Part shown: positions 11,303 through 49,974 of the stretch, piece by piece
Layout: each line of letters opens with the position of its first letter
Numbering within the stretch: the stretch's first letter is position 1
IMG/VR virus record: IMGVR_UViG_3300021400_001148
Span: 64,001 to 128,000 of that record
From: a virus
Lineage: Duplodnaviria; Caudoviricetes
Reading direction: 5' to 3' (one strand)
DNA: 64,000 nt
Notes under the pieces: generated by a model
Databases searched by the model: none
The model's input: the letters and a program-made list of their open reading frames with translations, nothing else
What the model was told of the DNA's origin: nothing
Translations under genes and position numbers: made by a program

Positions 11303-12146
11303 ATGGAAAAAGAAGAACTACTGAGGCACGCACGAGCATTACATGAGTGTAGCCTAACCCCTGAAGATTTGAAAACCGCACTAGAGCAGAAATTCCCCGA
11401 ACTCAAGGAGAGTGAGGATGAGAGGATAAGGAAAGAATTATGGGAGTATTTCCATAATTTACAGTTAAGTAGTGATTGTGATTTTTCTCCATCGTTGACT
11501 ATTGATGATATTCTTGCCTACCTCGAAAGGCAGAAAGAGCGGAAGCCAGCAGAAAGTATATCGCAACTGACTGTTCAAGGCAAAGGTGTTTATAAAATCT
11601 GTCCTCGTTGTAAAGAGCGTATGGTGAGGGACGATAGTAAGGTTTATACCTCTATGCCACCACAATATGGCTATGAATGCCCTAAGTGTGGAGAGATGGA
11701 ATTTGATACGGTTATGTACGATAGTCCTGAAATGGAAGAGCAGAAGTCCACTGAGTGGAGTGAGGAGGATGAGAAGATGCTCATTGGAGTAATTGATACT
11801 ATCAAAGATGCCATTGCTGAATGTGATTGTGATGATGTTGGTGCCAGAGCAATGCTTATCTACGAAAAAGAATTGAACTGGCTTGAAAACCGTTTCAAAT
11901 CCCTCCACCCCCAGCCCGGCACTGTGCCCGTAGAAACTGCCACCAAATTTGGTGACATTGAGTATAAACGTGGAGTAAAAGACGGAATACAGAGCGAAAA
12001 AAAGCCATCATTGGAAGCCGAGCGAGGAGCAGATGGATGCACTGAGAAGGGTGGCCTATAGGATGGGCAATTCCTGTTTCGGAAAAACCTGGGCAAATGA
12101 TGAAAATCTACACAGCCTATATGTTGCACTTGAAAAAATGATATGA
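11303..12146 (+). pseudogene. family F modular protein with Zn ribbon; +1 frameshift in the A7 run at 11997-12003
   Basis: ESEDERIRK, CPRC/CPKC and WSEEDE motifs. Removing one A restores HHWKPSEEQMDAL...LEKMI*, matching the paralog C-termini. Confidence 0.7.
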
Positions 12147-12149
12147 GAT

Positions 12150-12671
12150 ATGGAATACATTGATGCAGATAAGTTGAAAGCCGAGATAGAACGGCTTGAT
12201 GAGGAATATAGGACGCTTCGTGTAAACGGAACCATAGAACAAGCAAAGGCGGCCGATTTAGTTGTACATGTGATTCACGGCCTTTCTAATTTCATTCGCT
12301 GTTTCCAGCAGGAGCAGCCGGATTTCAATGATGTTGACCCGAAGCGCCTTGTCCACTCGCATTACACTAAAGTGCGTGAAACAAAGACAGGAAGAGTGTT
12401 TTGGGCCGAGTATTCCATCGAGGCGGCCGAATGGTATGAGGCTGGTACTGGAAAGGCTTACTCCATTTCCGATGTGGAGATTGTAAAGGAGCAACTGGAG
12501 ATGGATTTGGAGAAATTCACCGAAAAGATAAAGACTTTCCAAGGAAGATATAAGCATCCCGAAATTGTATCAATAAAAGGTGCTATGGCATTTATGGCAA
12601 GGATGTTCTATCAGTATCCTAATGTAGCAAGACAGTGGTATGATAGTCTTCCAAAAGCAACAATGGATTAA
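12150..12671 (+). CDS. family B modular protein
   Basis: YIDADKL.AEIER..QQEQP..EMDLEK. Confidence 0.7.
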   Translation: MEYIDADKLKAEIERLDEEYRTLRVNGTIEQAKAADLVVHVIHGLSNFIRCFQQEQPDFNDVDPKRLVHSHYTKVRETKTGRVFWAEYSIEAAEWYEAGTGKAYSISDVEIVKEQLEMDLEKFTEKIKTFQGRYKHPEIVSIKGAMAFMARMFYQYPNVARQWYDSLPKATMD

Positions 12672-12683
12672 CTCAAGAGTATT

Positions 12684-12914
12684 ATGGTAACAAAAAAGCA
12701 AATATTAAAGGCACAGGAAGCGGCTATTGATGCAGAAGTAAGCCTTAACGCGGCACTGGGACACCTTGCGGCTCTTGCCAGTGAGGTTCTCGGAAAAGAA
12801 GTTGTGGCTGATTTATGTGGAGGCGACGAAATAGAATTTCGTTCGGTTGACAACTCGGGAGTTGCCGATGCCTTTGATACAATATTGATTGAAGACATTT
12901 TAAGGCTGCTTTAA
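12684..12914 (+). CDS. hypothetical protein
   Basis: 76-aa ORF in an operon-like run. Confidence 0.6.
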   Translation: MVTKKQILKAQEAAIDAEVSLNAALGHLAALASEVLGKEVVADLCGGDEIEFRSVDNSGVADAFDTILIEDILRLL

Positions 12915-12917
12915 ATT

Positions 12918-13253
12918 ATGGCAAAAACATTTTCGGAACTGAAAATAGGAGACCAGTTGTGGATATGGTGGCTTGACACCCTCCTACAAACAACTGTTAA
13001 GGACGTAAAGATTCCAGTCAAGTCTATTAATGGGGAATATCTTTATTTGCAAATTGAGACGGAGAAGGGGAGTTTTACCGCCTTTTCTGATGTCATGAAA
13101 TGTTCAGCCTTTGTCTACGGTACTGACGGATTGGAACACAAGATTATCGGAACATCCAAAGAAGCGGTACGCGACACGCTAAAGGAAAGCCTTGAATTCA
13201 AGAAAAAAGAGATAGAAATGAAAACAGAGTTGTGGCTCAAAAATTTTGATTAG
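12918..13253 (+). CDS. family I protein (paralog of 44351)
   Basis: FSELK.GD..W.WW...AFVYG.DG.E.KI.GTSKEAV. Confidence 0.7.
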   Translation: MAKTFSELKIGDQLWIWWLDTLLQTTVKDVKIPVKSINGEYLYLQIETEKGSFTAFSDVMKCSAFVYGTDGLEHKIIGTSKEAVRDTLKESLEFKKKEIEMKTELWLKNFD

Positions 13254-13255
13254 AA

Positions 13256-13765
13256 ATGTGTCTGTTTGTACATAATAACAATCCCATACCGTTAGTGGCT
13301 GAGAGGGATATCGAAGTTAAGAAAGTATTAGTCTCTGTGTTTAAAACCGTGGAGAACCACTGGCGCATAGGATGGAAACAGCAATACGAGACACCGTTTA
13401 CCAACACTCCTGTAGTTTTTGTTGACGGCAAAAGTGTGATGGAAGCCAAGTATCTGACCGGCGATGTGACTTATTTCGGTGATTCTAACCCCGTTAAGAA
13501 TGTGAATTTTTCGCTTCTCACTGAATCAGACAGAGAGAGAATACGCCCTGAGACGATTCAATGGGTGGATGTTTATCAAGGGATACATGCTTACATTGAC
13601 AGGGAGACTGTGCTCCGTGAGAGTTCATGGTTTTCGTCAACGGTGCGTGAGAACTACCAAATTTTTGATGCGGTAATACCGAAGGGTACCAAATATTTCC
13701 TTGGGACTGCGGGCGATGTTGTTTCTGAAAAACTAATTGTCTTCTACAACCGTGATTCTCTCTAA
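13256..13765 (+). CDS. family A, copy 7
   Basis: MCL..TPF..GIHAY..IPKG..GDVVS. Confidence 0.75.
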   Translation: MCLFVHNNNPIPLVAERDIEVKKVLVSVFKTVENHWRIGWKQQYETPFTNTPVVFVDGKSVMEAKYLTGDVTYFGDSNPVKNVNFSLLTESDRERIRPETIQWVDVYQGIHAYIDRETVLRESSWFSSTVRENYQIFDAVIPKGTKYFLGTAGDVVSEKLIVFYNRDSL

Positions 13766-13785
13766 AAATTTTGTATATTTGCAAT

Positions 13786-14743: not shown

Positions 14744-16864
14744 ATGGAAGTACTGGAAGGGAAGATACAGAACATTGTCTTTCGCAACGAGGAAGATGGC
14801 TTTACCATACTTAAAACGGACAATGACACTGTTGTAACCTGCAAAGGAATGATAAATCCTGTGCGGGGTGTGGCTTATACATTCTCAGGTGGATGGGGAA
14901 GGGATAAGTGGGGTACAAAATTCATCGCAGAAACTGCCGAGGAGAGTATACCCCAAAAACCAATTGATATCATCAATTACCTTTCATCAGGATTGGTGAA
15001 AAACATTGGCCCGGTTTATGCGAGGGCCATTGTGGAATATTTCGGGGCGGAAACATTCAAAGTTCTTGACAGTAAGTCAAAAGAACTGTTAAAAGTGAAA
15101 GGGATAGGCAAGGGCCGGGCGGAATCAATATGGAAATCGTGGGCCGAGCACAAGAACATCCGTGAACTCGTTTCATTTCTTCACGACTTGGAACTACCGG
15201 TCAGTTTCGCCGTCAAAGTGTACCGCCGTTATGGAAACTCAGCAATCGAAGACATAAAGGAGGACCCTTACAGACTTCTTGAGGAAATGGATGGCGTAGG
15301 CTTTGAGAAAGTTGACGCCCTCGCATTAAGGCTAGGTATAGAGCCAACAAATACCCGGAGGTGTGAGGCGGGTGTGATGTACATTCTTTCTGGGCGTGCA
15401 GAGGCCGGGGACACATACTGTGAAAAACAGCATCTTTTTCAATGGGTCTCGGAACTTCTGGGTGTGAGTCATGATGTTATTGCCCCGGTCATTTCAGAAA
15501 TGTGTGACAAACGTACATTGGTAGACGATGGTGAGGAAAGAATATTCAAGTCTTCCTTATGGTATGCCGAACAAAGGGTTGCAACAAAAATAAGGAAAAT
15601 ACTTGCCGAATGCACAATTGGGGTTTCCTGTAATATAGATACGATTCAGAAAGTAACCGGCTTGGAGTATGATGATGTTCAAAAAAATGGAATAAAAACC
15701 GTCCTCAATTCCGGCGTGTCAGTGGTGACTGGAGGACCGGGCACCGGAAAAACGACAATTCTCAAGGCTGTAATAGAGGCGTTGAAATCTGCCCATTATA
15801 AAATAGCCGCAGCAGCACCAACAGGAAAGGCCGCAAAGAGGATAAAAGAAGTCACTGGCGTTGAGGCCAGCACAATCCATCGGCTTCTCGGATATATTCC
15901 GGGGGAAGAAGATTATGAATACAACAACAGTAACTTTCTTCATTATGATGCCATCATATTGGATGAAGCCAGTATGATAAACATCCAACTTATGGATGTG
16001 CTTCTTGACGCCGTTTCTCCAACAACAAAACTTATTATCGTCGGGGATGTGGACCAGTTACCCCCAATTGGGCCCGGCAATGTTCTCTCAGACATCATTG
16101 CTTCCGGGGTGGTACCCACTGTTAAACTTACAAAAATCTACCGTCAGGCCGAGGGTTCGGACATCATAGTGAACGCTCACAGAATAAATTCCGGACAAAT
16201 GCCGGCTGTTCTCAATTCAAAACCCGGGACTGATTTCTTTTTTATTGAAAGTTCTCCAGCAACAACCCCGGAGATGATAGCGGATTTACTTGAAAAACGT
16301 CTTCCAGCGAAATATGATGTTCCTTCGGCTGACATACAAGTAATATGCCCCAAAAAAGCAGGTACCTGTGGAATAAATAACCTTAACAAGGTACTGCAGA
16401 GGAGACTTAATCCTACTGGGATACAGATAACTTTTGGTGACACCGTTTTCCGTATTGGTGACAGGATAATGCAGACAAAGAACAACTATGACAAGAATGT
16501 TTTCAATGGAGAAACTGGCATTATAACATCCATTGACCCAATGGAAAAAATCATAACCTCCGATTTTGACGGTCGCACAGTACAATATATGCCGGGAGAT
16601 TTCAATGAAATAGTTTTGTGCTACGCGATGACAATTCACAAGTCTCAAGGTTCGGAATTCCCTATTGTCATAATTCCAATTTTCATTGAAGCATATAACA
16701 TGTTGGAAAGGAATCTGTTGTACACGGCTGTAACCAGGGCGAAGAATATTTGTCTTATTGTTGGAATGAAAGAAATGATAAGAAAGGCTGTTGAAACGGT
16801 CACATCGGTAAGGAGAAACACTAATTTGAAAGAGAAACTTATGGGTGGTCGCCCCCACGAATAA
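14744..16864 (+). CDS. recD2: RecD2-like SF1B DNA helicase
   Basis: N-terminal OB/HhH region, GGPGTGKT, DEASM, GDVDQLP, IYRQ, TIHKSQGSE and LYTAVTRA; 706 aa. Confidence 0.95.
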   Translation: MEVLEGKIQNIVFRNEEDGFTILKTDNDTVVTCKGMINPVRGVAYTFSGGWGRDKWGTKFIAETAEESIPQKPIDIINYLSSGLVKNIGPVYARAIVEYFGAETFKVLDSKSKELLKVKGIGKGRAESIWKSWAEHKNIRELVSFLHDLELPVSFAVKVYRRYGNSAIEDIKEDPYRLLEEMDGVGFEKVDALALRLGIEPTNTRRCEAGVMYILSGRAEAGDTYCEKQHLFQWVSELLGVSHDVIAPVISEMCDKRTLVDDGEERIFKSSLWYAEQRVATKIRKILAECTIGVSCNIDTIQKVTGLEYDDVQKNGIKTVLNSGVSVVTGGPGTGKTTILKAVIEALKSAHYKIAAAAPTGKAAKRIKEVTGVEASTIHRLLGYIPGEEDYEYNNSNFLHYDAIILDEASMINIQLMDVLLDAVSPTTKLIIVGDVDQLPPIGPGNVLSDIIASGVVPTVKLTKIYRQAEGSDIIVNAHRINSGQMPAVLNSKPGTDFFFIESSPATTPEMIADLLEKRLPAKYDVPSADIQVICPKKAGTCGINNLNKVLQRRLNPTGIQITFGDTVFRIGDRIMQTKNNYDKNVFNGETGIITSIDPMEKIITSDFDGRTVQYMPGDFNEIVLCYAMTIHKSQGSEFPIVIIPIFIEAYNMLERNLLYTAVTRAKNICLIVGMKEMIRKAVETVTSVRRNTNLKEKLMGGRPHE

Positions 16865-16944: not shown

Positions 16945-17652
16945 ATGACACGAAAAGACTTACAGGAAAGGTACAATATCATTGGCCACAATAAGGATGT
17001 GTCCCTTTACAGAAAGAGAGGTGAATATACATACGGTATCGGATATTGTGGAAACATTTCCCTGAAAAACGGTAAGGCAATATTCAACGGTGCTCAATAT
17101 ACACAAATTGAAAGCCTCGATGAAGCACTGCGCAAGTGGGAGAAGTCTTTGCCATATCCGGTTGACACATATAATCCCCTCATGCGTGAATCCGCAAGAA
17201 TCGAACAAAGGGTCACCTGGTATCTTACTGATAAAATGGGATTTAAACATCCAAGAGAAAATTGGAAAGATGAATACATAAAAAACATCGGGCCGAATTG
17301 TAGATTAAAATTTACACTTGAAAGGAGCCGGGATGATTTTGATGATATAAAAATCCAGATTGTTTCAGAATATGGTGGTGCCTTTTTCAGGTATGAGTTT
17401 GATAACGCCGAATCAGGAATAGCGGCGATTTCAACAATTATCAAAGAAAGTGTCTTGCAGATGGCGGCAGATATGGTTGACTGCCTGTCCGTTTGCCCGG
17501 ATGTGGAAGTTCCGAACATTGAGTCATATGTTAAAACGAACGAAAATATTTTCGGGTTTAAGGAGGTAAGTTTTAAAGATATGATGATTTCCCTGCTCGA
17601 GAAAGAGCTTGAAAAACTCAAAAACGAGAAACAACCAAAAACCAACGACTAA
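16945..17652 (+). CDS. hypothetical protein
   Basis: Start placed at the ATG after the promoter. Confidence 0.7.
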   Translation: MTRKDLQERYNIIGHNKDVSLYRKRGEYTYGIGYCGNISLKNGKAIFNGAQYTQIESLDEALRKWEKSLPYPVDTYNPLMRESARIEQRVTWYLTDKMGFKHPRENWKDEYIKNIGPNCRLKFTLERSRDDFDDIKIQIVSEYGGAFFRYEFDNAESGIAAISTIIKESVLQMAADMVDCLSVCPDVEVPNIESYVKTNENIFGFKEVSFKDMMISLLEKELEKLKNEKQPKTND

Positions 17653-17665
17653 ATTATTAACAACC

Positions 17666-18442
17666 ATGGATAAGACAATAGAAATTCCCGAGAATAAGAC
17701 AATAGAAATTCCCGAAGGCTATGAGGCCAGAATAGAGGGTAACAAGGTTATCCTCATGCAAATAGAGAGCGAGGATGAGAGGATAAGGAAGGAGTTGGTA
17801 TCTTTCATCCAGAAGGAAAAAGAGTATATGGAGTCTAAGGTAAAGCCGGAAAACAGCCCAAGACTTATGTTTCTTATAGATACTCTTGCCTACCTCGAAA
17901 GGCAGAAAGATAAAATGACTGCGGAAGAATATGAAAAATCGGAACCATTCCAACTGAAGTTAAAAACCCAATATGTTAACGGGTATCAGGATGGATTAAC
18001 ACAGAAGCAGAAGCCTGCAGATAATAGTGTGTACCCTCCGTCGCTTGAAGAAGCAATACAGCTTTACTATGGCACTTACGGAAATGGTAAAGGTGGATTT
18101 GACCACATCTCACTTCCTAAATTCCAAGATATTGTCAAGACCTTTGTGAAGGACTATGGCCAGAAGTTCACAGAGTGGAGCGATAAAGATAGGGAGTTCA
18201 TCAAGGATTTATGTAATCTTTTAGCAGCAATAGCAAAAAATAATTATGTGGGCTGTTATTATGCACCAGAACTGATAAATAAAATCCGCTCCCTTCGCCC
18301 TCAGCCTCACTGGAAGCCAAGTGAAGAGCAGATAGACCATTTGGCATACGCTTATACGCAACTAAAATTACAGAAGTGCTATGCACCTCATGTGTACGAA
18401 ACACTTGGTTCACTTTACGACGACCTTAAAAAACAACTTTAG
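17666..18442 (+). CDS. family F modular protein
   Basis: ESEDERIRK, EWSDKD, WKPSEEQ and LYDDLKK motifs; 24-bp duplication (KTIEIPE x2) at the 5' end. Confidence 0.7.
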   Translation: MDKTIEIPENKTIEIPEGYEARIEGNKVILMQIESEDERIRKELVSFIQKEKEYMESKVKPENSPRLMFLIDTLAYLERQKDKMTAEEYEKSEPFQLKLKTQYVNGYQDGLTQKQKPADNSVYPPSLEEAIQLYYGTYGNGKGGFDHISLPKFQDIVKTFVKDYGQKFTEWSDKDREFIKDLCNLLAAIAKNNYVGCYYAPELINKIRSLRPQPHWKPSEEQIDHLAYAYTQLKLQKCYAPHVYETLGSLYDDLKKQL

Positions 18443-18618
18443 TCTATGGATATTTTTTTTTAATTATGGTCAATACGGAAAGAGTAGATTTATGCTTGCC
18501 GTTCATGAAAAAATAATCGGTGGCGGTTCTCGTTGCATTTGGAAGACTACCTGCAAATGGCCGGAGGGCACACCTATGAAGGTTCTTGAAGACAAGTTAA
18601 GGGCAAAAGCAAATAAAC

Positions 18619-19128
18619 ATGGATATTTTGAAACAACATATTGGACACTACATTGACGCAGACAAACTGATTGCACTTATAGATGCAAAACTTGAAGATT
18701 TGGGATTGAGTGGTTCTGTTTGGGTTGGAAGAAGTGTTCTCCAAGATTTAAAAAATAATATAATTACTTCTCTCCAGCAGGAGATGCTGGAAACATCAAA
18801 TAATTTGGTAGATGTCGACGCAGTAAGGGATGATTTTATGACGGAAGTCTATCGTGTACTTGATGCTGACCCCACAAATGATAGAGCGAATGCAATAATT
18901 AACGCATTTGATTCTTTGCCGACAATCTCTCAGGAACAGCCGGAGGTGGATTTGGAGAAAATAGAAAAAGCATCATACAAAGTCTTTCCTGCCAAGAAAA
19001 AACTTGGCGTCGAAAAAATCAAATACCCCAATCGAGAAGATGAAAACTTTTCCAAACGAGAAATATGGAAAGATGGTGTTATATGGGCAATATACAGCCT
19101 GAACAGAAATGTAAGAAAGGAGGATTAA
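18619..19128 (+). CDS. family B modular protein
   Basis: YIDADKLIA..SLQQE..QEQPEVDLEK..NVRKED. Confidence 0.7.
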   Translation: MDILKQHIGHYIDADKLIALIDAKLEDLGLSGSVWVGRSVLQDLKNNIITSLQQEMLETSNNLVDVDAVRDDFMTEVYRVLDADPTNDRANAIINAFDSLPTISQEQPEVDLEKIEKASYKVFPAKKKLGVEKIKYPNREDENFSKREIWKDGVIWAIYSLNRNVRKED

Positions 19129-19322
19129 GGTATATGCAATGGAAAGAATTAAAATGGTATAAGGCAGATAAGGATTATTCTTTTTCCTTTGTTAGATGCC
19201 TTGTTATTGCTAAAAATGGAAATGTAGTAATAAGAAACAATGCTAAAAAAGGTGAGCACTATATTCCACTGCCAATCATAGAAGATTTACCAAAAGATTA
19301 ACGCAAGAAAGGAGGCAACCAA

Positions 19323-19535: not shown

Positions 19536-19537
19536 CT

Positions 19538-19732: not shown

Positions 19733-19752
19733 CGTAAGAAAGGAAAAATAAC

Positions 19753-19968: not shown

Positions 19969-19969
19969 T

Positions 19970-22054: not shown

Positions 22055-22067
22055 AAGGAGGACAGCC

Positions 22068-23177: not shown

Positions 23178-23188
23178 AAATTTTCGCC

Positions 23189-39500: not shown

Positions 39501-42305
39501 AGCTTGTGTGTTATATCCTTCTGCGTGACCTGCTCTTCCTTTAACAAGCGTATACCATCCCTCCGCATGTCCTTGCATAGCTTGAACTTTAACCTGGTAG
39601 CCCTCGGCGTGTCCTTCTTCTTCGAGAACCTCATTTGAAAGTCCTTCCACATGCGAATAATTCCCGGAAGCTACATTTTGTTTTCCTTCAACATGAACAC
39701 CCTTTACGACAATACCATTCTTGGATATTTTATTACGGCAACCCTCCACATGAGAATAAGGGGCTTCTATAATAACGTTTCCTTGACCCTCAACATGTGA
39801 GCCCGTAGACTTTGTGTTGTAAAGTGAACCATCTGATGATGGTGGAACTTTTGTCGTATCACTGCCAAGATAATTGAGAGCACCTTCTATATGTGCATAA
39901 TTGCTTTCAACTGTATTTGTATATCCTTCTGCATGCGATGCGGTTCCAGAAGCCTCGGTTGATTGTCCTTCGGCGTGTGATGCAATTCCTGATGCTGTCG
40001 TTCCCGAACCTTCAGCAACTGAACTAACTCCACTTGCTACCGCACCACTTCCTTTCTGCTGAACACTATTTTCGCCGGAACCCGATTCCCAAAGAGAATC
40101 ATTTTCTAAAGATTTGATAACCTCCTGAACTGTTTTAGATGGTTTTGTTTCATCGGTTTTTAAATTGTTTCCTTCATAATCCCCAATACCATATAGATAG
40201 GCATCGCCATTCTGCATGATTTCGAAAGCATTTTTTCTATTAGCATCATCTCTACCTATACCTACTGAATGTTGCGTATTTCCTGAAGAGCCATAAATGT
40301 CTGAATGCTTGTTGGATATATTGTAGATTCCCTCTGCATGCTCAGTCTCGTTTTGGGCTGTTGTATTATACCCTTCTGTATGAGAGTTGTATCCGGATGC
40401 GGTGGTGTTTTCTCCTTCTGCATGAGAGGTTGTTCCGGATGCTGTTGTATTAAACCCTTCCGCATGAGAGTGGTATCCGGATGCGGTGGTGTTTTCTCCT
40501 TCTGCATGAGAGGTTGTTCCGGATGCTGTTGTGTGGTCACCTTCTGCATGAGAGTGGTATCCGGATGCCGTTGTATTATACCCTTCTGCATGAGAATCAT
40601 CTCCAGTTGCATTTGTTGTATTACCTTCAGCATGAGAGTTGTATCCGGATGCGGTGGTGGAACTACCTTCTGCATGAGAGTGGTATCCGGATGCCGTTGT
40701 ATTATACCCTTCTGCATGAGAATCATCTCCAGTTGCATTTGTTGTATTACCTTCAGCATGACTTGCACTACCTAACGCAGTAGTACCAATGCCTTCACTA
40801 TGTGATGCGTAACCTTTTGAGCCTGAATTTGATGAATAATAATTTACTTGAGAAATTATAAATTCAACATTCGCAGTCTTTTTATTCCCAATTCCTAATT
40901 TTTCAGATAATTGAAACCATTTTGAACCACCAGTGTATACAGCTGTTACTGTTATTCCTCTATCCGAAACATCAACCCCATTTAATTTGTATAGCATACA
41001 GCCTACTGAATAGACATCCGCAGCTGATGTACCTTCAGTTGTTTGATACAATCTAGTTTCCGTTGCAGCGGCTTTTATTGTGTCACTAATTGGTTGACCT
41101 GTTACTATAATTTTATAGCCAATCCCTTCAGCATGAGAATACCTACCTTCTGCTCTGGTATAACCTCCCTCTGCGTGCGAACCAACTCCCTGCGCAACAG
41201 TTTCAACTCCTTCAGAGTGAGATGATGCACCCTTTGCAGAATTGCTAAATCTACATTTTACATTAACGAATTCGTCCCCTTCTGTATCATTTGGAATATA
41301 ATCAGATAGATTAAGGTAGGTAGATATGCCATCTTCAGCTTCAATATTCTCAATATAAATAATTTTATCAAAATCTACAGTAGATGCACCAATGTTCAAA
41401 TGGCACAAATCGCCTGCATTTTGAACAAGAATGTATCTAGCAGATTCTCTATCAATTCGACGTAATGTTACCAATACTTCAGATTCGTGTTCATAGCCTC
41501 CCTCTTTATGAGAGCCATATCCTGTAGCAGAACCGCCTCTACCTTCGGAATGTGCAGCAGTTCCTACTGAGTAAGTACTATACCCTTCAGCATGTGCACC
41601 ATTACCATTAACTTTAGTTTGAAAACCTTCTGAATGAGCACCCTCTCCTTTCTCTACTTTGGTATAATATCCTTCAGAATGAGAAGAATTACCGGCGGCG
41701 ATTGCCCCAATACCCTCCGAGTGACTTCCGGAACCTTCTGACTTTGTTCCAAGACCTTCCGCATGAGCCCCACGGCCTGATGCCTCTGTATAAATAATAG
41801 TCTGTTCTCCTGTTTCTTTCCAATTACTATCATCAGTTACTGCTATAGAACCTTCTGCATGAGCTCCTTGACCTGATGCGTTTGTACCAATACCTTCGGC
41901 ATGTGATTTTTCACCACTTGCTTGAGTCTGTTGAGTATCTATGGTTCTTTCATCATCTTTGCCTTGGTGATATAATATCGAAGTACCACCATTCTCTGCA
42001 TGTGAATCTAAGCCTGATGCTATTGTTTCATGACCTTCGGCAACACTATTATCTCCACCAGCAACTGCCCCGGTTCCTTTTTGCTGAACACTATTTTCAC
42101 CAGAGCCTTTTTCCCAAATATCCTCTCGGGGCCCAAAAGTAACTATTTCATCACTGTCATTTTTAATAAACAAACCCTCCGTTCCTTCGTGGTAGTTCAG
42201 CGCTATTTCACCGTACTCTAAATCTATTGGTTGGGGAATTTTTCCTTCCCCTTCTGAAAGTGTTTCGTTGGAGCGTTTTAGCAATACAGTATATTTTTTT
42301 GCCAT
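36600..42305 (-). CDS. ~1900-aa tail fibre/adhesin with SHAEG (YadA-head-like) repeats
   Basis: N-terminal LKRS..P...L.YGEIALNY anchor. Blocks of 14-aa SHAEG..T.ASG repeats are closed three times by TQHS.GIG...KNAFEIMQNG.AYLYG. Alternative start at 42323. Confidence 0.8.
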   Translation of the reverse strand: MAKKYTVLLKRSNETLSEGEGKIPQPIDLEYGEIALNYHEGTEGLFIKNDSDEIVTFGPREDIWEKGSGENSVQQKGTGAVAGGDNSVAEGHETIASGLDSHAENGGTSILYHQGKDDERTIDTQQTQASGEKSHAEGIGTNASGQGAHAEGSIAVTDDSNWKETGEQTIIYTEASGRGAHAEGLGTKSEGSGSHSEGIGAIAAGNSSHSEGYYTKVEKGEGAHSEGFQTKVNGNGAHAEGYSTYSVGTAAHSEGRGGSATGYGSHKEGGYEHESEVLVTLRRIDRESARYILVQNAGDLCHLNIGASTVDFDKIIYIENIEAEDGISTYLNLSDYIPNDTEGDEFVNVKCRFSNSAKGASSHSEGVETVAQGVGSHAEGGYTRAEGRYSHAEGIGYKIIVTGQPISDTIKAAATETRLYQTTEGTSAADVYSVGCMLYKLNGVDVSDRGITVTAVYTGGSKWFQLSEKLGIGNKKTANVEFIISQVNYYSSNSGSKGYASHSEGIGTTALGSASHAEGNTTNATGDDSHAEGYNTTASGYHSHAEGSSTTASGYNSHAEGNTTNATGDDSHAEGYNTTASGYHSHAEGDHTTASGTTSHAEGENTTASGYHSHAEGFNTTASGTTSHAEGENTTASGYNSHTEGYNTTAQNETEHAEGIYNISNKHSDIYGSSGNTQHSVGIGRDDANRKNAFEIMQNGDAYLYGIGDYEGNNLKTDETKPSKTVQEVIKSLENDSLWESGSGENSVQQKGSGAVASGVSSVAEGSGTTASGIASHAEGQSTEASGTASHAEGYTNTVESNYAHIEGALNYLGSDTTKVPPSSDGSLYNTKSTGSHVEGQGNVIIEAPYSHVEGCRNKISKNGIVVKGVHVEGKQNVASGNYSHVEGLSNEVLEEEGHAEGYQVKVQAMQGHAEGWYTLVKGRAGHAEGYNTQAVAFYSHAEGQGSMSLNQAAHAEGENTQATGQDSHTEGFNTKTGGNDSQNTLSGGTYTKVGAYAHAEGNATLAQAIASHTEGEKTFATGRASHAEGNATTASGSGSHAEGEHATASGSGSHAEGDHTTASGVSSHAEGSYTTASNTCSHAEGDETKAFGYCSHAEGVGTTASGYGSHAEGVGTTASGYGSHAEGEHATAQNEAEHAEGRYNKSNKSSNTYGDSGNTQHSIGIGASTADTKNAFEIMQNGDTYLYGVGGYDGTNATASTSNTLQNVVSGKQDTLVSGTNIKTVNGVSILGSGNLDTGNVFEAGTGEHSAVLRRSNSIASGEFAVAEGSGEISTIESQITELTDNEKQAIQQHYGRSFEYYFWGDWNSPRDGSMVYLNSDHEHPIAVITDAVFCDSEVQVDETYIFGVLFNASGATLSTGVEYYTESMDTDSANYAAGNYSHAEGLSVKALGWYSHAEGQDTTASGTTSHAEGYCAIASGNFSHAEGNNTRASAYTSHAEGNGAIASGENSHAEGVATIASGNFSHAEGNITRASGYTSHAEGDRTKASATCSHAEGYRTTANGGYSHAEGANTTTRNLFEHAEGYFNKSNTFSLDYGHSGNTQHSIGIGTSTADTKNAFEIMQNGNAYLYGVGGYNGTNPSSNNSLQKIFADISEIRSLSLSELDYILGTEGDASGGYIAALYIDDFEDGQGGNTYAEESGYNNIQEYISDVCNNMSAADHVGTNIFMPTCNVMEYEGAEYRVWVGFNAGENRNSIYALAPKNLDYTTLYNNSMEANVNNHYCPFAVVFNGSPDEMGDIYTDNLDVDYRLICVKTLEYSSTPIQEHSSAIAKIYFDDFHEYGLYMSMHNAGVDTMDNYIQAVRDNDNPDQYWEDVGVTVEYEGVEYKFYADGSSNMYGGLLPMDMTYQDLYPHTLECDGHNINTPYSPFVVRWIEGEGVGDYEGEDPSNKYSTIIAIE

Positions 42306-42360
42306 AGAATAAATGATTTTCATATAAATATCTGCTGAAAAAAAATTCTCGCATCTTCAT

Positions 42361-42639: not shown

Positions 42640-42948
42640 ATGAAGTACATTAACACAGATAGACTGATTGCTGAGATAGAAAGGCGAAAGAAAGAGATTT
42701 TTGAAATTGGCGATGACACATTTGAGAACAGATGGGTTTGTGGCTCACTTGATGGTATCAAAGCATTTGCCATATCTCTCCAGCAGGAGCAGCCGGAGGT
42801 GGATTTCGAGAAGGAATTAAAAAACGAGAGGACTAAATTATTGGATGCGTTTGGTCCAATGAACGGAGAGCAATGTCTTGCTATTAGGAATTTTGCTCGT
42901 CACTTTTACGAACTTGTTAAAACCGCAAGAAAGGAGGAAAGTAAATGA
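42640..42948 (+). CDS. family B protein
   Basis: First 19 aa identical to 29791; SLQQEQPEVDFEKE..FYEL..ARKEE. Confidence 0.75.
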   Translation: MKYINTDRLIAEIERRKKEIFEIGDDTFENRWVCGSLDGIKAFAISLQQEQPEVDFEKELKNERTKLLDAFGPMNGEQCLAIRNFARHFYELVKTARKEESK

Positions 42949-43550: not shown

Positions 43551-43742
43551 ATGGTATTTTGGATTATTTTGTCAATCATTGCATATTCATTGTTAGGAAC
43601 AATGATTTGTGCTAAGATTGGTGTATTATGTGACAGCGATAATTTTTTGGGATTGGATGATTTTTTGGCATTGATTGTTGATACTATATTGATTGCCTCC
43701 TGGCCATTGACGCTTATATTTCATTTTTTATTGGAGGATTGA
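43551..43742 (+). CDS. small membrane protein
   Basis: Two TM segments, SWPL motif. Confidence 0.55.
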   Translation: MVFWIILSIIAYSLLGTMICAKIGVLCDSDNFLGLDDFLALIVDTILIASWPLTLIFHFLLED

Positions 43743-43747
43743 GAGTT

Positions 43748-44143
43748 ATGACACAAGAAGAAAAAAAATTACTGCTGAAAGACCTTTGCGCGAGGTTGCC
43801 TTATGAGCCACACATCTACATTAAAGCCGGAAAAGCACATGCAGATATTGTGCTGAACGGGACACATATTCACGACTGGATGACGGTTCCATCATGTCAA
43901 AACATAACCATCAAACCATATCTTCGTCCAATGTCAACTATGACTGGGGAAGAGAGAAAATATTATATCCACCTTCTTAATTTAACAAAATCTGACAGAA
44001 TTGTAATATCAAAGGACGGATTAGGAACATCAGGAGCAGAGGATATTATTGATTATCTCAATGCACATTACCTCGATTTTCGTGGTTTAATCCCTATGGG
44101 ACTTGCTCTTGAAGCGCCTAAGGATATGTATAAAACCGAATAA
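43748..44143 (+). CDS. family C protein
   Basis: Family C termini. Confidence 0.75.
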   Translation: MTQEEKKLLLKDLCARLPYEPHIYIKAGKAHADIVLNGTHIHDWMTVPSCQNITIKPYLRPMSTMTGEERKYYIHLLNLTKSDRIVISKDGLGTSGAEDIIDYLNAHYLDFRGLIPMGLALEAPKDMYKTE

Positions 44144-44350: not shown

Positions 44351-44716
44351 ATGGGCAAGAAATTTTCAGAGTTGAAGGCGGGCGATTCTGTGTGGGTTTG
44401 GTGGTATAGTGAATTGTACGAATATGGACTTCACGAAATTCGTTCTGCTAAGATATTTTTGCTTACTGATGATGGGAAAGTAGAACTGAAACCGTCAGGA
44501 GAAATGTTAATGTCTTTAAACGGTGGCGGCGAATATGTAATACGCAACGACGAAAGCAACTATGAAGCATTTGTTTATGGATGTGATGGTCATGAATATA
44601 AAATTTTCGGCACGTCCAAGGAAGCAGTAAAAAACCTACTTCAAGAAGTTTTAACAAAAGACATAGAAAAAATTGAAGCCGACAAACAAAAATGGCTAGC
44701 CGAATTTGATAAATAA
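44351..44716 (+). CDS. family I protein
   Basis: Paralog of 12918. Confidence 0.7.
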   Translation: MGKKFSELKAGDSVWVWWYSELYEYGLHEIRSAKIFLLTDDGKVELKPSGEMLMSLNGGGEYVIRNDESNYEAFVYGCDGHEYKIFGTSKEAVKNLLQEVLTKDIEKIEADKQKWLAEFDK

Positions 44717-44720
44717 CACG

Positions 44721-45509
44721 ATGAGAATATTATGCATACTGCAAAACGCATGGGGTGACAGGGAACTTCCCATTACATTTATTCCCAATCCCTTCAATAA
44801 AAGCGCAAAAACCATCAGGAAAATGGTGGGTGACAACTTTTTTATGTTTTCCAACACAACCGATGTGGTAACGAAGACCTCAAGGGAAAAACCAAAACCC
44901 AATTACGAACACTTTGAAAAGGTGATAAAAAGGATAAAGTACTTCGACATGGTCCTCGTATGTGGAAAACAGGCGGAGGAAACAGTAAATAAATATATGA
45001 CGGAAATTGAATCGCAGGGAAAGCCAATTATGTTTGTTCCTCATCCTGCGGCCAGAAACCTCACTAACGCGAAATGTGAGGAAATTAGAGAACAAATAAA
45101 GAAATACGAAAAGTCCATGACACAAGAAGATAAACAACTATTACTTAAAGACCTTTGTGCAAGGTTGCCGTATATTACATATTATGACTTATCATACTAT
45201 GGGCATAAAACACGAGCCGTTTTACAAGAGCTTATAACAACAAAAGACCCATTAAAAAGTCTTGTAAAAGTTAACACCGTTGTCAGTCCAATTCCTTATG
45301 AGAATATCAAGCCTTATCTCCGTCCAATGTCAAGTATGACCGAGGAAGAGAAAAATGAATATTTTGGCAGAATAACAACAAATAGTCTTATTGAAACATT
45401 TTCACAACGAGTTATTGATTGGCTTAATACGCATCACTTTGACTATCGTGGTTTGATACCTATGGGACTTGCTCTTGAAGCACCAGAAGGAATGTATAAA
45501 AACGAATAA
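44721..45509 (+). CDS. UDG-superfamily-like domain in frame with a family C module (own ATG at 45117)
   Basis: ILCILQNAW..VLVCGKQA..PHPAAR followed by MTQEDKQLLLKDLCARLPY. Confidence 0.6.
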   Translation: MRILCILQNAWGDRELPITFIPNPFNKSAKTIRKMVGDNFFMFSNTTDVVTKTSREKPKPNYEHFEKVIKRIKYFDMVLVCGKQAEETVNKYMTEIESQGKPIMFVPHPAARNLTNAKCEEIREQIKKYEKSMTQEDKQLLLKDLCARLPYITYYDLSYYGHKTRAVLQELITTKDPLKSLVKVNTVVSPIPYENIKPYLRPMSSMTEEEKNEYFGRITTNSLIETFSQRVIDWLNTHHFDYRGLIPMGLALEAPEGMYKNE

Positions 45510-46067: not shown

Positions 46068-46529
46068 ATGGTTACAGAAGACTACGTTAATTTTGAGGTA
46101 GCCAAACTCCTTAAGGAAAAGGGATTTGACGGGCCATGCTATAAAGTGTGGGAATCACATGGTGACTCGCAGACTCTTGTGGGGGCATCATGGTTTGCCG
46201 AAGGTGAAACAGTTGTTAACAGGGAATCAGTAGATGCTGCTGCTAAACAGTATGCTTATGAATATAACCTTAACAATAATGTTGAGGGATATTTGGCCCC
46301 AACCCTTCAAATGGTAATGAAGTGGCTGAGGGAAGTTCATAATCTGCACTGTTGTATTGACTACGATTTTGTTCTTGAGTGGTATTGTCAGATTACAAGT
46401 CTCAAAGAAACAGTTGAATATGACGATTTGGAAATGAAGCACTATCACCCCGATAAAGTTAATAGTTTCTCTTCGCCAGAAGAAGCCTGTGAAGTAGCAA
46501 TTAAATATTGTCTTGAAAATTTAATTTAG
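46068..46529 (+). CDS. family D protein
   Basis: Family D termini. Confidence 0.75.
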   Translation: MVTEDYVNFEVAKLLKEKGFDGPCYKVWESHGDSQTLVGASWFAEGETVVNRESVDAAAKQYAYEYNLNNNVEGYLAPTLQMVMKWLREVHNLHCCIDYDFVLEWYCQITSLKETVEYDDLEMKHYHPDKVNSFSSPEEACEVAIKYCLENLI

Positions 46530-46531
46530 AT

Positions 46532-46906
46532 ATGGCACAAGAAGAAAAACAATTACTACTCAAGGACCTTTGTGCAAGGTTGCCATATGAAACTATGTTT
46601 TATTCTGATAGATATGGAGAAGAATGTCTACTTAGTATTGACTTAGAGTATAACAAAGTCAATGAATTGTACTCATTAGAAGAAATTAAGCCCTATCTCC
46701 GTCCTATGTCAAGTATGACTGAGGAAGAAATAAACGAGTTTATCCTAATATCGGACACCGTGCTTTGGCTGGGTGATAAGAAGTCGACCAGTATATTAAG
46801 CCTTGAACAAATAGACTGGCTTAACGCTCATCACTTTGACTACCGTGGATTGATTGAAAAGGGCGTGGCCCTTGAAGCTAAAGAAGGAATGTATAACATC
46901 AAATAG
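46532..46906 (+). CDS. family C protein
   Basis: Family C termini. Confidence 0.75.
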   Translation: MAQEEKQLLLKDLCARLPYETMFYSDRYGEECLLSIDLEYNKVNELYSLEEIKPYLRPMSSMTEEEINEFILISDTVLWLGDKKSTSILSLEQIDWLNAHHFDYRGLIEKGVALEAKEGMYNIK

Positions 46907-47131: not shown

Positions 47132-48082
47132 ATGACACAGGAAGAAAAGCAAATATTGTTGATTGACCTTTGCGCAAGGTTGCCTTATGGGGTTAAAGTA
47201 AAAATAACTAATGAGGGTGTTCTATCGGTTGATAGTGAAAAAGGAACTCTTGATGGTAAAGAAATCATGAGTGATGACTGCTTCACTATTAAATGTGATA
47301 AGGATAGTTGGATATTGTCATATGATGAATTCAAACCTTATCTCCGTCCAATGTCAAGTATGACTGAGGAAGAGAAGTGGGAATCTATTGATATTAAGAA
47401 AGGGGAATGCAACGGCTGTGTTCTTACTGGAAAAGGTGACCCAAATACAGAATTTATGCTAGTTGATTTCTATAATAAGCATCACCTTGACTATCGCGGA
47501 TTGATTCCTATGGGAATTGCTCTTGAAGCCCCGGGGAAATGTATGAAAATATATAAAAACAAACAGAATATGACAAGAGAAGAAAATATCACCGTTCCTC
47601 GCTGGTTTCTCGAAACAGTGGAAGATACGCTTCGGATTCAGAACAATATCAACCTTGATAAAAGTACCGGGGAAACCTGTCAGGACCGAAATGTAAAAGA
47701 ATCTCTCAACGGATTGCGAAAACTTTTGAGAGGCGAAGAACTAACCGGGGGAGAAAGATTGGAAAAGTTACAGCCCTCCCTTCCCTCCAATCTGGACGAG
47801 GCAGCAGAAGAAACAGCCAAAAAATATTATTGTTCGTGTTTGGAAAAGCACAATGAAACCGGCATTTGCGATGGGTGCGAAAATGTAAAACTATCTTTCA
47901 AGGCCGGTGCCGAGTGGATGGCCGGACAGGGATATGTCGATACTCACGCAGTGATAAATGAATATAGAGATTGGGGTGACGGGTTTGCAAATCTGGAACT
48001 TGCCATTGCCACCAATGATGATTTCTTTGAAGATTGGCAAGAACCGAATGAAATAATCATCCAAATCCGAAAGAAACAGTAA
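47132..48082 (+). CDS. family C gene joined to a family G gene (ATG at 47570) by a 1-nt deletion near 47535
   Basis: The paralog ending (G)MY..* survives out of frame (stop at 47556); the second half has QPSLPSNLDEAA..FKAGAEWMAGQG. Confidence 0.7.
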   Translation: MTQEEKQILLIDLCARLPYGVKVKITNEGVLSVDSEKGTLDGKEIMSDDCFTIKCDKDSWILSYDEFKPYLRPMSSMTEEEKWESIDIKKGECNGCVLTGKGDPNTEFMLVDFYNKHHLDYRGLIPMGIALEAPGKCMKIYKNKQNMTREENITVPRWFLETVEDTLRIQNNINLDKSTGETCQDRNVKESLNGLRKLLRGEELTGGERLEKLQPSLPSNLDEAAEETAKKYYCSCLEKHNETGICDGCENVKLSFKAGAEWMAGQGYVDTHAVINEYRDWGDGFANLELAIATNDDFFEDWQEPNEIIIQIRKKQ

Positions 48083-48084
48083 CC

Positions 48085-48411
48085 ATGAGAACAAAACCCA
48101 TACATCCCGATGAAGAACTTTTTACAAAGTCCGGCTTAAGTTATGAGCGTATCCCCATCCCAACAGCCGTAACAAAAATACTTAGGCGGAAGGTGGGAGA
48201 TAAGGTATTAATTTGCCACTATGCGAGAAATACGCACGACACGGCTGTATTGAACTATGTGAGTTTCAATGAGGGATTTTTACACCAATATGCAGGCTAT
48301 AGTTTCGGTATATCCCCGGGGCAAACACTAAAAGAAAAACTCATTATAGTGGCAGAGAATATTGCTGAGACTTGGCCGGAATATGCAGTAAGAAAACGAA
48401 AGAAACAGTAA
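48085..48411 (+). CDS. hypothetical protein
   Basis: Ends in KKQ* like both neighbours. Confidence 0.6.
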   Translation: MRTKPIHPDEELFTKSGLSYERIPIPTAVTKILRRKVGDKVLICHYARNTHDTAVLNYVSFNEGFLHQYAGYSFGISPGQTLKEKLIIVAENIAETWPEYAVRKRKKQ

Positions 48412-48413
48412 CC

Positions 48414-48614
48414 ATGACAAAAAGCGAGTTATCAATACTTGAAAATGCATTGAAAGAAATACAAGACAAAGAACACGAATGTTTCCGGCAGATGGCTTAT
48501 CTTAAAGAACACAAGTTTGAAATGGAACGAGCCGCCATATCTTATAAGCAAGAGGCGTATAACAATAGCTGGCTAATTCTTTCATTCGCAATAGATAAAT
48601 TAAAGAAACAGTAA
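48414..48614 (+). CDS. hypothetical protein
   Basis: Ends in KKQ*. Confidence 0.6.
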   Translation: MTKSELSILENALKEIQDKEHECFRQMAYLKEHKFEMERAAISYKQEAYNNSWLILSFAIDKLKKQ

Positions 48615-48729
48615 CCAAGGGCGCGGAATGCGAGATAGATGAATAATGGCATAAGTATTAAGTCAGTCGCGACGCATATCTCGAACGCGCCCTTTTTATT
48701 AACCCGGCGAAAGCCTAAAAGAGAAAAAG

Positions 48730-49131
48730 ATGATTAAAGTTACTGAACTTCAAATAGGAGATTGGGTGCAGAATCCGCTTGGATGGAAGGCACAAGTACA
48801 GTCTATTAGATATGTGAACACCATCAAAGATGAGTGGGAGTGGCTGGTTAAGATTGGAATCAATAATGAAACATTTCAAGACCATTTATCATTAACCGAA
48901 ATAGAGCCTATCCCCTTAACGCCCGAAATCTTGGAGAAGAACGGATTTTCATGCCGTGGTGTCTGGTGTCTTCCTGGTGAAGATTTGGGCCTTCGGCAAG
49001 ACGGAGACAGTTGGGGGCTACTCTCATATTACGCCGAATATGATGCTTTGGCGTTTTGCCATATCAAATATGTCCACGAACTTCAGAACGCCCTTCGGCT
49101 TTGTGAGATTGAAAAAGAAATCAAATTATAG
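48730..49131 (+). CDS. family E protein
   Basis: Paralog of 20758. Confidence 0.7.
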   Translation: MIKVTELQIGDWVQNPLGWKAQVQSIRYVNTIKDEWEWLVKIGINNETFQDHLSLTEIEPIPLTPEILEKNGFSCRGVWCLPGEDLGLRQDGDSWGLLSYYAEYDALAFCHIKYVHELQNALRLCEIEKEIKL

Positions 49132-49204
49132 TATATATCTTTGAAAACTATATTCAGATTACAATTATGACAATGGTTAAATATAGACGTTAATTTAGAA
49201 TAAT

Positions 49205-49606
49205 ATGATTGTTGAAGATTATGTCAGTTTTGAGACTGCGAAACTCCTGAAGGAAAAGGGATTTGATGAACCTTGCCATTGTTTGTGGAATAATCCTCAT
49301 GGCACCCCTTATAATTCTATCGATTGTATGATGACGACCTATGAAGATATAGACCCCGAGGTTGTCCATCATTGGTATCTTTGTCCAACCCTCCAAATGG
49401 CAATAAAGTGGTTGAGGGAAAAACATTTAATTTTCTTCGACATTTTCCACATTATCGGAGACATTGAAGATGGCGAAGAGTTCCAAATAGGGGTTTATGA
49501 AAAAACAAGCACGGATACATACACTTGGAAAAATTGGATTAAAGGAGAAACATACGAAAAAACCTATGAAAAAGCAATCCAATATTGTCTTGAAAATTTA
49601 ATTTAG
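49205..49606 (+). CDS. family D protein
   Basis: Family D termini. Confidence 0.75.
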   Translation: MIVEDYVSFETAKLLKEKGFDEPCHCLWNNPHGTPYNSIDCMMTTYEDIDPEVVHHWYLCPTLQMAIKWLREKHLIFFDIFHIIGDIEDGEEFQIGVYEKTSTDTYTWKNWIKGETYEKTYEKAIQYCLENLI

Positions 49607-49608
49607 CC

Positions 49609-49974
49609 ATGACAAGAGAAGAAGCTATTGAGACTATAAAGGATATTTGTCTCACGACAGAACAGTTAACACACATTGAGGAAGCATTGGAGTGTTTGCT
49701 CTCCCAGCCCTCCCTTCCCTCCAACCTTGATGAGGCGGCAGAGAAGAACTTTGAAACCATGAAGGTTCTTGAACACGAAAACATCTTTGAAGAAACCCAC
49801 AATAGAATCTTCAAATCCGGGGCAGAGTGGATGGCGGGGCAGGGATATACAACAGAAAAAACGGTTAATAGAACGCCTCTTAACGGACCAGCTGGAATAT
49901 GCTTGAATCTTCACGATTCCACCGGCTTTAAGATTGGCGACAAAGTAATCGTTCAAGTCAGAAAGAAACGCTAA
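49609..49974 (+). CDS. family G protein
   Basis: QPSLPSNLDEAAE..FKSGAEWMAGQG..VQVRKK. Confidence 0.7.
   Translation: MTREEAIETIKDICLTTEQLTHIEEALECLLSQPSLPSNLDEAAEKNFETMKVLEHENIFEETHNRIFKSGAEWMAGQGYTTEKTVNRTPLNGPAGICLNLHDSTGFKIGDKVIVQVRKKR

Follow-up and report, generated by a model that had tools for sequence, protein, structure and literature searches.

How a phage genome comes to carry many small genes that agree at their ends and are unlike in their middles is the question raised by a stretch of 64,000 nucleotides, hereafter the window, which corresponds to bases 64001–128000 of IMG/VR virus record IMGVR_UViG_3300021400_001148. The source phage is represented by a single contig of 354,809 bp with direct terminal repeats, rated 100% complete, with 41% G+C and approximately 489 open reading frames (ORFs) according to a simple greedy ORF picker. 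In the window, two plus-strand arrays of small, tightly packed genes (~5.4–31 kb and 42.6–50 kb) contain five paralogous families, here called A–E. By comparing these families within the genome and among related phages, we arrived at the proposal that the arrays are plastic and that cassettes within their genes are probably swapped by ordinary homologous recombination at conserved blocks, which we consider the best overall explanation of the locus.

Five Gene Families with Conserved Blocks and Unlike Middles

The families were defined by all-against-all blastp, and their letters differ from those used in an earlier note on this DNA. Together, and counting further copies outside the window, they account for about 33 genes among the ~489 ORFs of the genome, and the C-, D-, and E-type genes occur in 5–9 copies per genome. 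Each gene of the families is a complete ORF, from start codon to stop codon, and lies in a tightly packed operon. In a Pfam scan that included 125 family D members, no family reached the threshold, and no named PHROG match was obtained for the families (family A corresponds to phrog_13450, and family E to phrog_12005, of unknown function). Family D domains, five of which are present in the window, consist of three conserved blocks and two variable segments, V1 (21–76 aa) and V2 (11–57 aa), with the pattern MTQEEKQLLLKDLCARLPY...KPYLRPMSSMTEEE...DYRGLIxxGLALEAP. The same layout was observed in family E (three genes) and family C (five genes), the latter with the pattern MKYIDADKL...SLQQEQPEVDLEKE...FARHFYELG. 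Family B comprises four multi-module genes with the linkers ESEDERIRK, YLEKQKEQKP, AEWSEEDE, LKSLRPQP, and HWKPSEEQM, and family A, with eight copies in the window, shows 30–50% identity over its whole length.

The multi-copy families with fixed ends and unlike middles described in the earlier note were recovered by blastp, and all five DNA words quoted there were found, each on the plus strand only: TCTCTCCAGCAGGAGCAGCC at 29221, 30380, and 42775; GACCTTTGTGCAAGGTTGCC at 23877, 45150, and 46565; CGTCCAATGTCAAGTATGAC at 45321 and 47345; GAGTGGAGCGAGGA at 27184, 27277, and 27415; and TGGAAGCCGAGCGAGGAGCAGATG at 12012 and 28948. By our own arithmetic, ~0.002 repeated exact 20-mers would be expected in 64 kb of random sequence. 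In self-blastn, terminal blocks of 57–64 bp reached 84–91% identity, compared with 60–66% across whole genes, and the matches within the arrays were direct repeats. The description of the blocks as nearly identical in DNA was accurate for selected stretches of 20–60 bp in two or three copies, but not for all copies, in which the proportion of synonymous differences (pS) was 0.45–0.72.

A family D profile retrieved 150 IMG/VR relatives, many of them on contigs of 300–410 kb. In the 78 loci that were fetched (L-numbered contigs), family D domains were matched 199 times, with as many as 19 matches in a single 20-kb locus, and members of families A, B, C, and E were present as well. Judging from this gene content, all five families travel together in the arrays of related 300–410-kb phages. 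The retrieved contigs came from rumen-type metagenomes, and the source phage is presumed to be a rumen jumbo phage. Against 1.84 billion cluster representatives (50% identity), the family D profile matched 9288 proteins at E<=0.001 and 1209 at 1e-30. Family B had 2863 homologues, all unnamed and with mosaic coverage, many of which matched only one or two query modules at 60–87% identity. A megablast of both arrays against 50,697 GenBank phages gave no match.

Independent Assortment of the Variable Segments

Each family D domain was cut into N block, V1, M block, V2, and C block, and V1 and V2 were compared separately in all 19,503 pairs among 198 domains from the 78 IMG/VR loci and the source genome. 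A pair was regarded as discordant when one segment was >60% identical and the other <30%. By this definition, 34 pairs were alike in V1 and unlike in V2, and 37 pairs were alike in V2 and unlike in V1; the concordant pairs numbered 24, all of them the same gene in near-identical phages. In a non-redundant sample of 156 family D domains from the 1.84-billion-protein library, 6 and 11 pairs were discordant and none was concordant, and 150 V1 and 145 V2 types were distinguished at 60% identity, nearly each domain having its own. Family E yielded at least 15 and 4 discordant pairs versus 10 concordant, and family C 3–4 and 3 discordant pairs versus 3 concordant. Rather than colinear, non-mosaic arrays, the relatives thus displayed V1 and V2 segments that sort independently in families D, E, and C.

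Discordance in both directions was found for genes of the window. Gene 46532 and L001:7753-8190 were 92% identical in V2 and 12% in V1, and the domain at 45117-45509 and L005:10001-10405 were 79% identical in V1 and 17% in V2; both results were also obtained by DNA alignment. Likewise, gene 47132 and L027:10001-10396 agreed in V2 (85%) and not in V1 (20%), and the V1 protein segments of gene 29071 and L046:8688-9002 were 100% identical with V2 at 13%. In the pair L007:9968-10378 and L041:9968-10435, DNA identity was ~98% from upstream of the start codon through the stop codon, V2 excepted. The two V2 segments (57 vs 117 nt) were unalignable and were bounded by the M and C blocks, with ...ATGTCAAGTATRACTGATGAAGAAAAGAARGAAT as the left limit of the replacement and ATYGATTGGCT... 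as the right limit. Within a single genome, one cassette-sharing pair was detected, L068:10001 and L068:19350, alike in V1 and not in V2. These results demonstrated that the variable segments and modules are discrete, functionally constrained cassettes that are replaced whole, with breakpoints in the conserved blocks, and that the replacement occurs between paralogues and above all between related phages.

Selection on Cassettes and Codon Conservation in the Blocks

In 59 distinct cassette-sharing pairs, the ratio of nonsynonymous to synonymous divergence (dN/dS) was 0.17 inside the shared cassette, indicating that shared cassettes are under purifying selection. The synonymous divergence (dS) of the shared cassettes was 0.66, compared with 1.15 in the flanking conserved blocks of the same pairs. 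A cassette younger than its frame indicates transfer, because divergence in place forbids such an order. Among the source phage's own copies, block pS was 0.45 in family C and 0.57 in family D, with middles that were 10–27% identical and differed in length. The low block pS and dissimilar middles, in conjunction with the dN/dS of 0.17, excluded point mutation as the source of the middles in these C and D copies.

The codons used at identical block residues were compared within the genome, where the same-codon fraction was 0.80 in family C, 0.58 in family D, and 0.61 in family E (0.30–0.40 expected), compared with 0.35 in family A (0.36 expected). Across all phages, the observed and expected codon homozygosity in block columns was 0.53 and 0.42 in family D, 0.57 and 0.48 in family E, and 0.63 and 0.50 in family C, compared with 0.363 and 0.355 in the control family A. 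The excess was confined to few columns and included rare codons. Thus, Leu CTC (8% usage) was fixed in 124/194 sequences, Arg CGT (11% usage) in 116/~196, and Glu GAG (25% usage) in 104/126, and the fixed codons spell the words GACCTTTGTGCAAGGTTGCC and CGTCCAATGTCAAGTATGAC. Block pS between genomes was 0.71, versus 0.81–0.84 in family A. Synonymous sites in the blocks of families C, D, and E were therefore less diverged than elsewhere, the control family A being saturated. On the evidence of codon use, the blocks are conserved peptides with a real but partial, moderate additional conservation at the DNA level that is common to the phage pool; the own C and D copies of the source genome carry extra block similarity beyond this pool-wide level; and family A behaves, in its identity and saturation, as an ordinary old paralog family that is to be kept apart from the others.

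Two further candidates were considered. Within-genome gene conversion as the main cause of block similarity was rejected, because the same-codon fraction of family D was 0.52 within genomes and 0.50 between them, and only the own C and D copies stood out. In the window and L001–L078, family C blocks and family B linkers favored G/C-ending minority codons (GAG, CAG, AGC, CCC, AGG, TTC, and TAC), and the G+C content at third codon positions (GC3) of family C blocks was 0.50 versus 0.26 expected. As a general mark of the joints, such codons were rejected on the values for family D (0.30 vs 0.30) and family E (0.27 vs 0.25).

Organization of the Arrays

The features of the two arrays were as follows, with coordinates in the window.

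5393–7987, plus strand: five tandem family A genes (phrog_13450; starts at 5393, 5868, 6466, 7064, and 7520), the control family with saturated synonymous sites
11303–12061, plus strand: family B gene; linkers ESEDERIRK, YLERQKE, and EWSEED around a CxxC...CxxC zinc-ribbon-like insert
12150–12671, plus strand: family C gene whose middle is longer; pattern MKYIDADKL ... QQEQP ... FY-type end
12918–13253, plus strand: two-copy family gene, 37% identical to its partner at 44351–44716
13256–13765, plus strand: family A gene (phrog_13450)
14744–16864, plus strand: RecD2-type helicase (Pfam), among the arrays
17609–18442, plus strand: family B gene, containing the left end of a 9.5-kb strain difference after base 18244
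18245–27712: 9.5-kb stretch absent from the strain of contigs L163 and L079, where the flanking family B genes are fused in frame
23829–24305, plus strand: family D gene; constant-V1-constant-V2-constant layout
24549–24974, plus strand: family E gene (phrog_12005, unknown function)
25553–26167 and 26204–26701, plus strand: two family A genes
26719–27738, plus strand: family B gene, in which the WSEE module occurs three times and the last 8 codons (~27713) mark where the strain difference ends on the right
28192–29067, plus strand: family B gene, modelled as helical-hairpin modules with linkers between
29071–29385, plus strand: family C gene; V1 in common with L046:8688-9002
29791–30090, plus strand: family C gene
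30251–30967, plus strand: chimera gene; family C ends around a family-B-type module
42640–42948, plus strand: family C gene, the first gene of the second array; TAnnTTTG promoter-like word at 42570
43739–44143, plus strand: family D gene
44351–44716, plus strand: two-copy family gene, partner of 12918–13253
44706–45509, plus strand: fusion gene; N-terminal extra domain and family D domain (45117–45509, C-terminal half)
46068–46529, plus strand: family E gene
46532–46906, plus strand: family D gene, source of the fold model
47132–48082, plus strand: fusion gene; family D domain (47132–47560, N-terminal half) and a C-terminal domain in common with gene 49609
49205–49606, plus strand: family E gene
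49609–49974, plus strand: paralogue of the C-terminal domain of gene 47132, forming the second two-copy pair

The array had been taken to begin at 11303, which is not so, since family A already begins upstream, at 5393. The interval 11303–49974 also spans a minus-strand block (31207–42323) that sits between both arrays, is unrelated to the families, and includes a 1907-aa YadA-head-repeat protein. The gene for this protein (36600–42323, minus strand) has long internal DNA repeats at 37560–38170, 38715–39325, and 40164–40760 (63–71% identity), and the gene at 34643–36157, near it, has tandem repeats of its own. Two adjacent genes just upstream of the first family B gene (8804–10764) encode RNA ligases, a PF09414-type enzyme and a T4 Rnl1-type enzyme (PF09511). 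Intergenic TAnnTTTG words number five on the plus strand of the whole window, and from these promoter-like words the host is probably a member of the rumen Bacteroidota.

Both composite genes singled out in the earlier note were confirmed. Gene 30251 has family C ends (family B of that note) around a WSKED...LKSFRP B-type module (its family F), with a duplicated QEQP linker flanking the insert at each end, and gene 26719 has WSEE modules at residues 157, 188, and 234. In gene 11303, a +1 shift at an A7 run (11996–12002) puts the last module (HWKPSEEQM..., ending at ~12146) out of frame; were there six A's, the frame would continue through HWKPSEEQMDALRR...LEKMI and close shortly before gene 12150. 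The independent assembly L163 also has the A7, which may represent a lesion that has become fixed, a tract subject to phase variation, or a site of slippage. For the N-terminal domain of gene 44706 (44706–45116), the uracil-DNA glycosylase superfamily (PF03167) was matched weakly and below the threshold, with an E-value of 0.0056. Across the junction of a family E gene and the family D gene behind it, the 3' block of the former and the 5' block of the latter (46479–46589) form a 111-bp unit that is conserved at 81–86% identity in the distant phages L002, L033, and L043, and the E–D gene pair may also move as a unit.

Strain-Level Turnover

The assemblies L163 (13.5 kb) and L079 (3.5 kb), which are independent of each other, were 99.6% and 100% identical to the window up to base 18244, past which both continue with an 83–96% identical version of window 27713–28097. 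In the 9.5-kb stretch missing from them (18245–27712), families A, B, D, and E are represented; the in-frame fusion of the short form reads ...AAIAKNN|GNDIHVG*. Downstream of the junction, L163 carries different genes. Also within the missing stretch is a gene (19937–20758) for a pentapeptide-repeat protein with a C-terminal DUF5758 domain and a tandem array at the DNA level (20078–20419).

In this strain variant from window base 17609 on, L163:9216-13353 includes genes absent from the source genome (134 aa, a 295-aa protein, and others) and ends in an IS1595-family transposase on the opposite strand. The 56-aa gene at 27996–28166 corresponds in L163 to a 172-aa gene (L163:10724-11242), in which the first 34 residues are the same, a 21-residue C-terminal stretch is 71% identical, and an extra 64-residue Cys-rich insert is present; by alignment, this pair has fixed ends and a different middle outside the named families.

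Over 9.5 kb, the phage and L163 showed 33 point differences, which were clustered, 10 of them in 13184–13250 and 13 in 15466–15670 (inside RecD2). Their clustering marks these differences as short recombination patches from unsampled relatives, of a kind that arises throughout the genome and not in the families alone. The possibility that the patch at 13184–13250 had been copied from the paralogue at 44351–44716 was tested, and this was not so.

Four independent assemblies from different sources reproduced the window arrangement exactly, which argues against an assembly artefact. The scaffold L159 (ERZ28612966 scaffold_12) is from the same phage, being 100% identical over 20.4 kb; it measures 362,907 bp compared with 354,809 bp here, and the 8-kb excess could be a terminal repeat or a real variant.

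Predicted Structures and Possible Function

The model of a family D protein (gene 46532) had a mean predicted local distance difference test score (pLDDT) of 86.6 and a predicted template modelling score (pTM) of 0.79. In this model, the blocks form a helix (residues 3–19), a strand (52–57), two helices (64–73 and 91–99), and the C-terminal stretch, and the segments between them, V1 and V2, are predicted with less confidence. A Foldseek search of PDB with the model gave no match at E<=0.001 (best E 1.1), and a wide VIA-align search gave a best Z of 2.2. Its matches in the ESM Atlas were unnamed viral clusters only, plus one cluster with DUF6794, and a feature search of the ESM Atlas with family E likewise returned unnamed viral clusters only. 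The model of family B is a chain of helical hairpins, each from a WSEED or KPSEEQ linker to LKSL or LYxDLxKL, with one module disordered, and its fold search gave non-specific helical matches only. The linkers of this family also join other domains, namely WDGH (PF25311) in relatives and the zinc-ribbon-like insert in gene 11303. Families C, D, and E are small single-domain proteins in which the blocks form the structural core with two variable segments between, and family B is predicted to be a string of small, mostly helical modules with conserved linkers. From this architecture, the diversity of the cassettes, and the purifying selection on them, we infer that the proteins are probably scaffolds or strings that present exchangeable folded surface elements, and so binding proteins for variable host or defence targets. 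General Pfam and PHROG scans of representatives revealed no toxin families; PADLOC and dedicated toxin libraries were not searched.

Mechanism of Exchange and Alternative Explanations

In the complete genome, neither a reverse transcriptase (PF00078) nor a resolvase/invertase of the serine recombinase type (PF00239) nor a tyrosine recombinase (PF00589) was matched, and a RecA-fold protein is encoded that matches a PHROG family of UvsX-like recombinases. These results point to ordinary homologous recombination and not to a dedicated system. The idea that the middles are exchanged at the blocks was thus borne out in part: in families C, D, and E, the blocks bound exchanges and the middles are exchangeable cassettes, but the dedicated diversification system that had been suggested found no counterpart among these recombinases, and all copies are complete ORFs with no silent cassettes. 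Similarly, RecD2 does lie in the array and is a standard RecD2 by Pfam, but its proposed role in exchange was unsupported, the link being one of position, and the host takeover or counter-defence raised there as a possible purpose likewise found no support. No close relative turned up when IMG/VR was queried with RecD2, and the metagenome collection yielded only the same-phage contig L079, every other match being <=42% identical. We propose that both plus-strand arrays are the plastic accessory region of the 355-kb phage, in which exchange takes place by homologous recombination in co-infection and occasionally between paralogues. The UvsX-like recombinase of the phage would probably act on short stretches of identity in the blocks, and repeated exchange through the blocks would leave their synonymous sites less diverged than those of the control family. 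More tentatively, binding scaffolds may show variable surfaces to host or defence factors, and the large number of combinations would then reflect selection for diversity.

Several observations weigh against exchange at the blocks. The between-phage block pS of 0.71 suggests that the similarity of block DNA comes mostly from conserved residues, and the uninterrupted identity in the blocks that is usable for recombination is often just 20–30 bp. The blocks flanking shared cassettes were slightly more alike than background (0.75–0.80 vs 0.69–0.70), so that the exchange tracts would be very short or the events old. No cassette-sharing pair was found among the source phage's own copies, and current exchange inside the genome was thus not demonstrated. 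The 9.5-kb junction coincides with ~11 bp of imperfect microhomology in the variable part of a family B gene, outside the named linkers. Finally, the comparison loci are almost all short-read metagenome assemblies. This last point would favor an account in which the mosaics are metagenome assembly artefacts, with contigs jumping between paralogues or strains at shared blocks, since exact repeats of 20–30 bp can confuse small k-mers. Its probability is close to nil, given that the window genes are identical in the four independent assemblies from different sources, that the L163/L079 junction is present in two, that the discordant pairs span different samples and recur in an independent protein library, and that chimeras would not lower cassette dS below that of the flanks.

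A simpler history, in which ordinary tandem paralogues arose by duplication and diverged by point mutation, their ends kept by the needs of the protein and their middles drifting or positively selected, fits family A exactly (30–50% full-length identity, saturated synonymous sites), and the high between-phage block pS in C, D, and E also agrees with it. As an account of the locus we rate it quite improbable, because V1 and V2 have discordant histories in D, E, and C, cassettes of different length were replaced inside ~98%-identical genes, the shared cassettes have a dN/dS of 0.17 and are younger than their flanks, and block pS of 0.45–0.57 next to unalignable middles in the own D and C copies is impossible by point mutation at that dN/dS. 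It is unlikely, too, that the blocks are kept mainly for an activity of their peptides, with recombination incidental; the family B linkers, for example, would then serve in protease processing, in docking, or as packaging tags. The family B linkers are indeed short, charged, and rich in Pro and Glu, lie between independently folding modules, and join unrelated domains, and the pool-wide synonymous conservation is moderate; nevertheless, acting peptides leave unexplained both the position-specific fixation of rare codons across many phages and the lower block pS among own-genome copies, and they would be compatible with swapping by homologous recombination, not exclusive of it. A programmed device with dedicated machinery (a retroelement, a site-specific recombinase, or a RecD2-dependent pathway) that rearranges the arrays at high frequency in each infection cycle would account for turnover that is fast relative to point mutation (98%-identical genes; 9.5 kb between 99.6%-identical strains), for the rare codons fixed in the joints, and for the elevated GC3 of family C blocks. 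We consider it very improbable in view of the missing site-specific recombinases and reverse transcriptase, the blocks that are all direct repeats on one strand, the complete ORFs throughout with no single expression site and silent cassettes, and the arrangement that is the same in four independent assemblies.

Comparison with Described Systems

Gene conversion in Neisseria pilE/pilS and Borrelia vlsE is guided by conserved DNA blocks on either side of variable mini-cassettes. The families described here differ in that there is no single expression site, complete ORFs stand in operons, and exchange is seen between phages over evolutionary time. Diversity-generating retroelements differ in two respects, since no reverse transcriptase was matched here and the variable segments are unequal in length and unalignable, not equal-length repeats with adenine variants. 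Shufflons differ in that no site-specific recombinase was matched, no inverted repeats flank the segments, and the quoted blocks are on the plus strand only.

Among described cases, gp38, the tail-fibre adhesin of T2/T6-type phages, comes closest; its hypervariable segments are separated by glycine-rich motifs that are conserved (Trojet et al. 2011, PMC3157838; Tetart et al. 1996, 1998 as cited there). In both cases, a small protein has a conserved core of short motifs with variable segments between, in families C, D, and E as a constant-variable-constant-variable-constant arrangement with recombinational shuffling, and the breakpoints fall in or beside the conserved motifs. However, the families have no sequence similarity to gp38, their blocks are not glycine-rich, and no solved-structure fold matched. 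They are also multi-copy, with five kinds side by side outside the tail module, whereas gp38 is one gene per phage, and their variable parts are long and under purifying selection. The setting differs as well: gp38 is a receptor-binding protein of the tail-fibre tip, and the genes of the families lie in plus-strand small-gene arrays outside the 31207–42323 block with its YadA-head-repeat protein.

Arbiol et al. (2010, PMC2839356) described hyperplastic regions of T4-type phages in which PeSL cassettes, each a promoter with a stem-loop, mediate the shuffling. There too, small accessory genes, non-essential and with no assigned function, are gained, lost, and replaced between near-identical phages with mediation by short repeats, and the 9.5-kb strain difference is of this kind; however, the joints are intergenic and the units whole genes in T4-type phages, whereas here the joints are coding blocks within genes and the units are parts of proteins. 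De Paepe et al. (2014, PMC3945230) described recombinase-driven mosaicism in temperate phages, and Devoto et al. (2019, PMC6784885) found that homologous recombination is extensive among Lak megaphages of the gut. The resemblance is that phage recombinases and co-infection make mosaics, a process that the clustered point differences from L163, those inside RecD2 included, also show here. Both studies concern genome-wide admixture, whereas scaffold families with exchangeable cassettes were not described. A limited literature search, which is weak evidence of absence, turned up no description of these families or of comparable multigene families of jumbo phages. The families thus appear undescribed, the shuffling logic itself being known from gp38.

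Implications for Giant Phages

The fixed rare codons, in conjunction with the GC-rich codons of family C and the family B linkers, also allow a bolder reading that we hold to be rather unlikely, in which the five families would constitute a phage-borne combinatorial repertoire of binding proteins, with thousands of cassettes circulating among rumen jumbo phages and the joints kept recombination-competent at the DNA level. If this were true, evolvability itself would be selected, with a logic like that of the var or vls repertoires but across a virus population.

Swapping of cassettes by homologous recombination, the explanation that we favor, has consequences of its own. Several per cent of the genes of giant gut and rumen phages belong to these families, without a name or a known fold, and the finding of a scaffold with exchangeable cassettes turns these "hypothetical proteins" into a defined problem, namely the targets of the variable surfaces. 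For protein engineering, the arrays are of interest as a natural and very large record of the cassette swaps that small, stable scaffolds tolerate. Taken together, the families provide a tractable case of short coding joints that are maintained by recombination, or for it.

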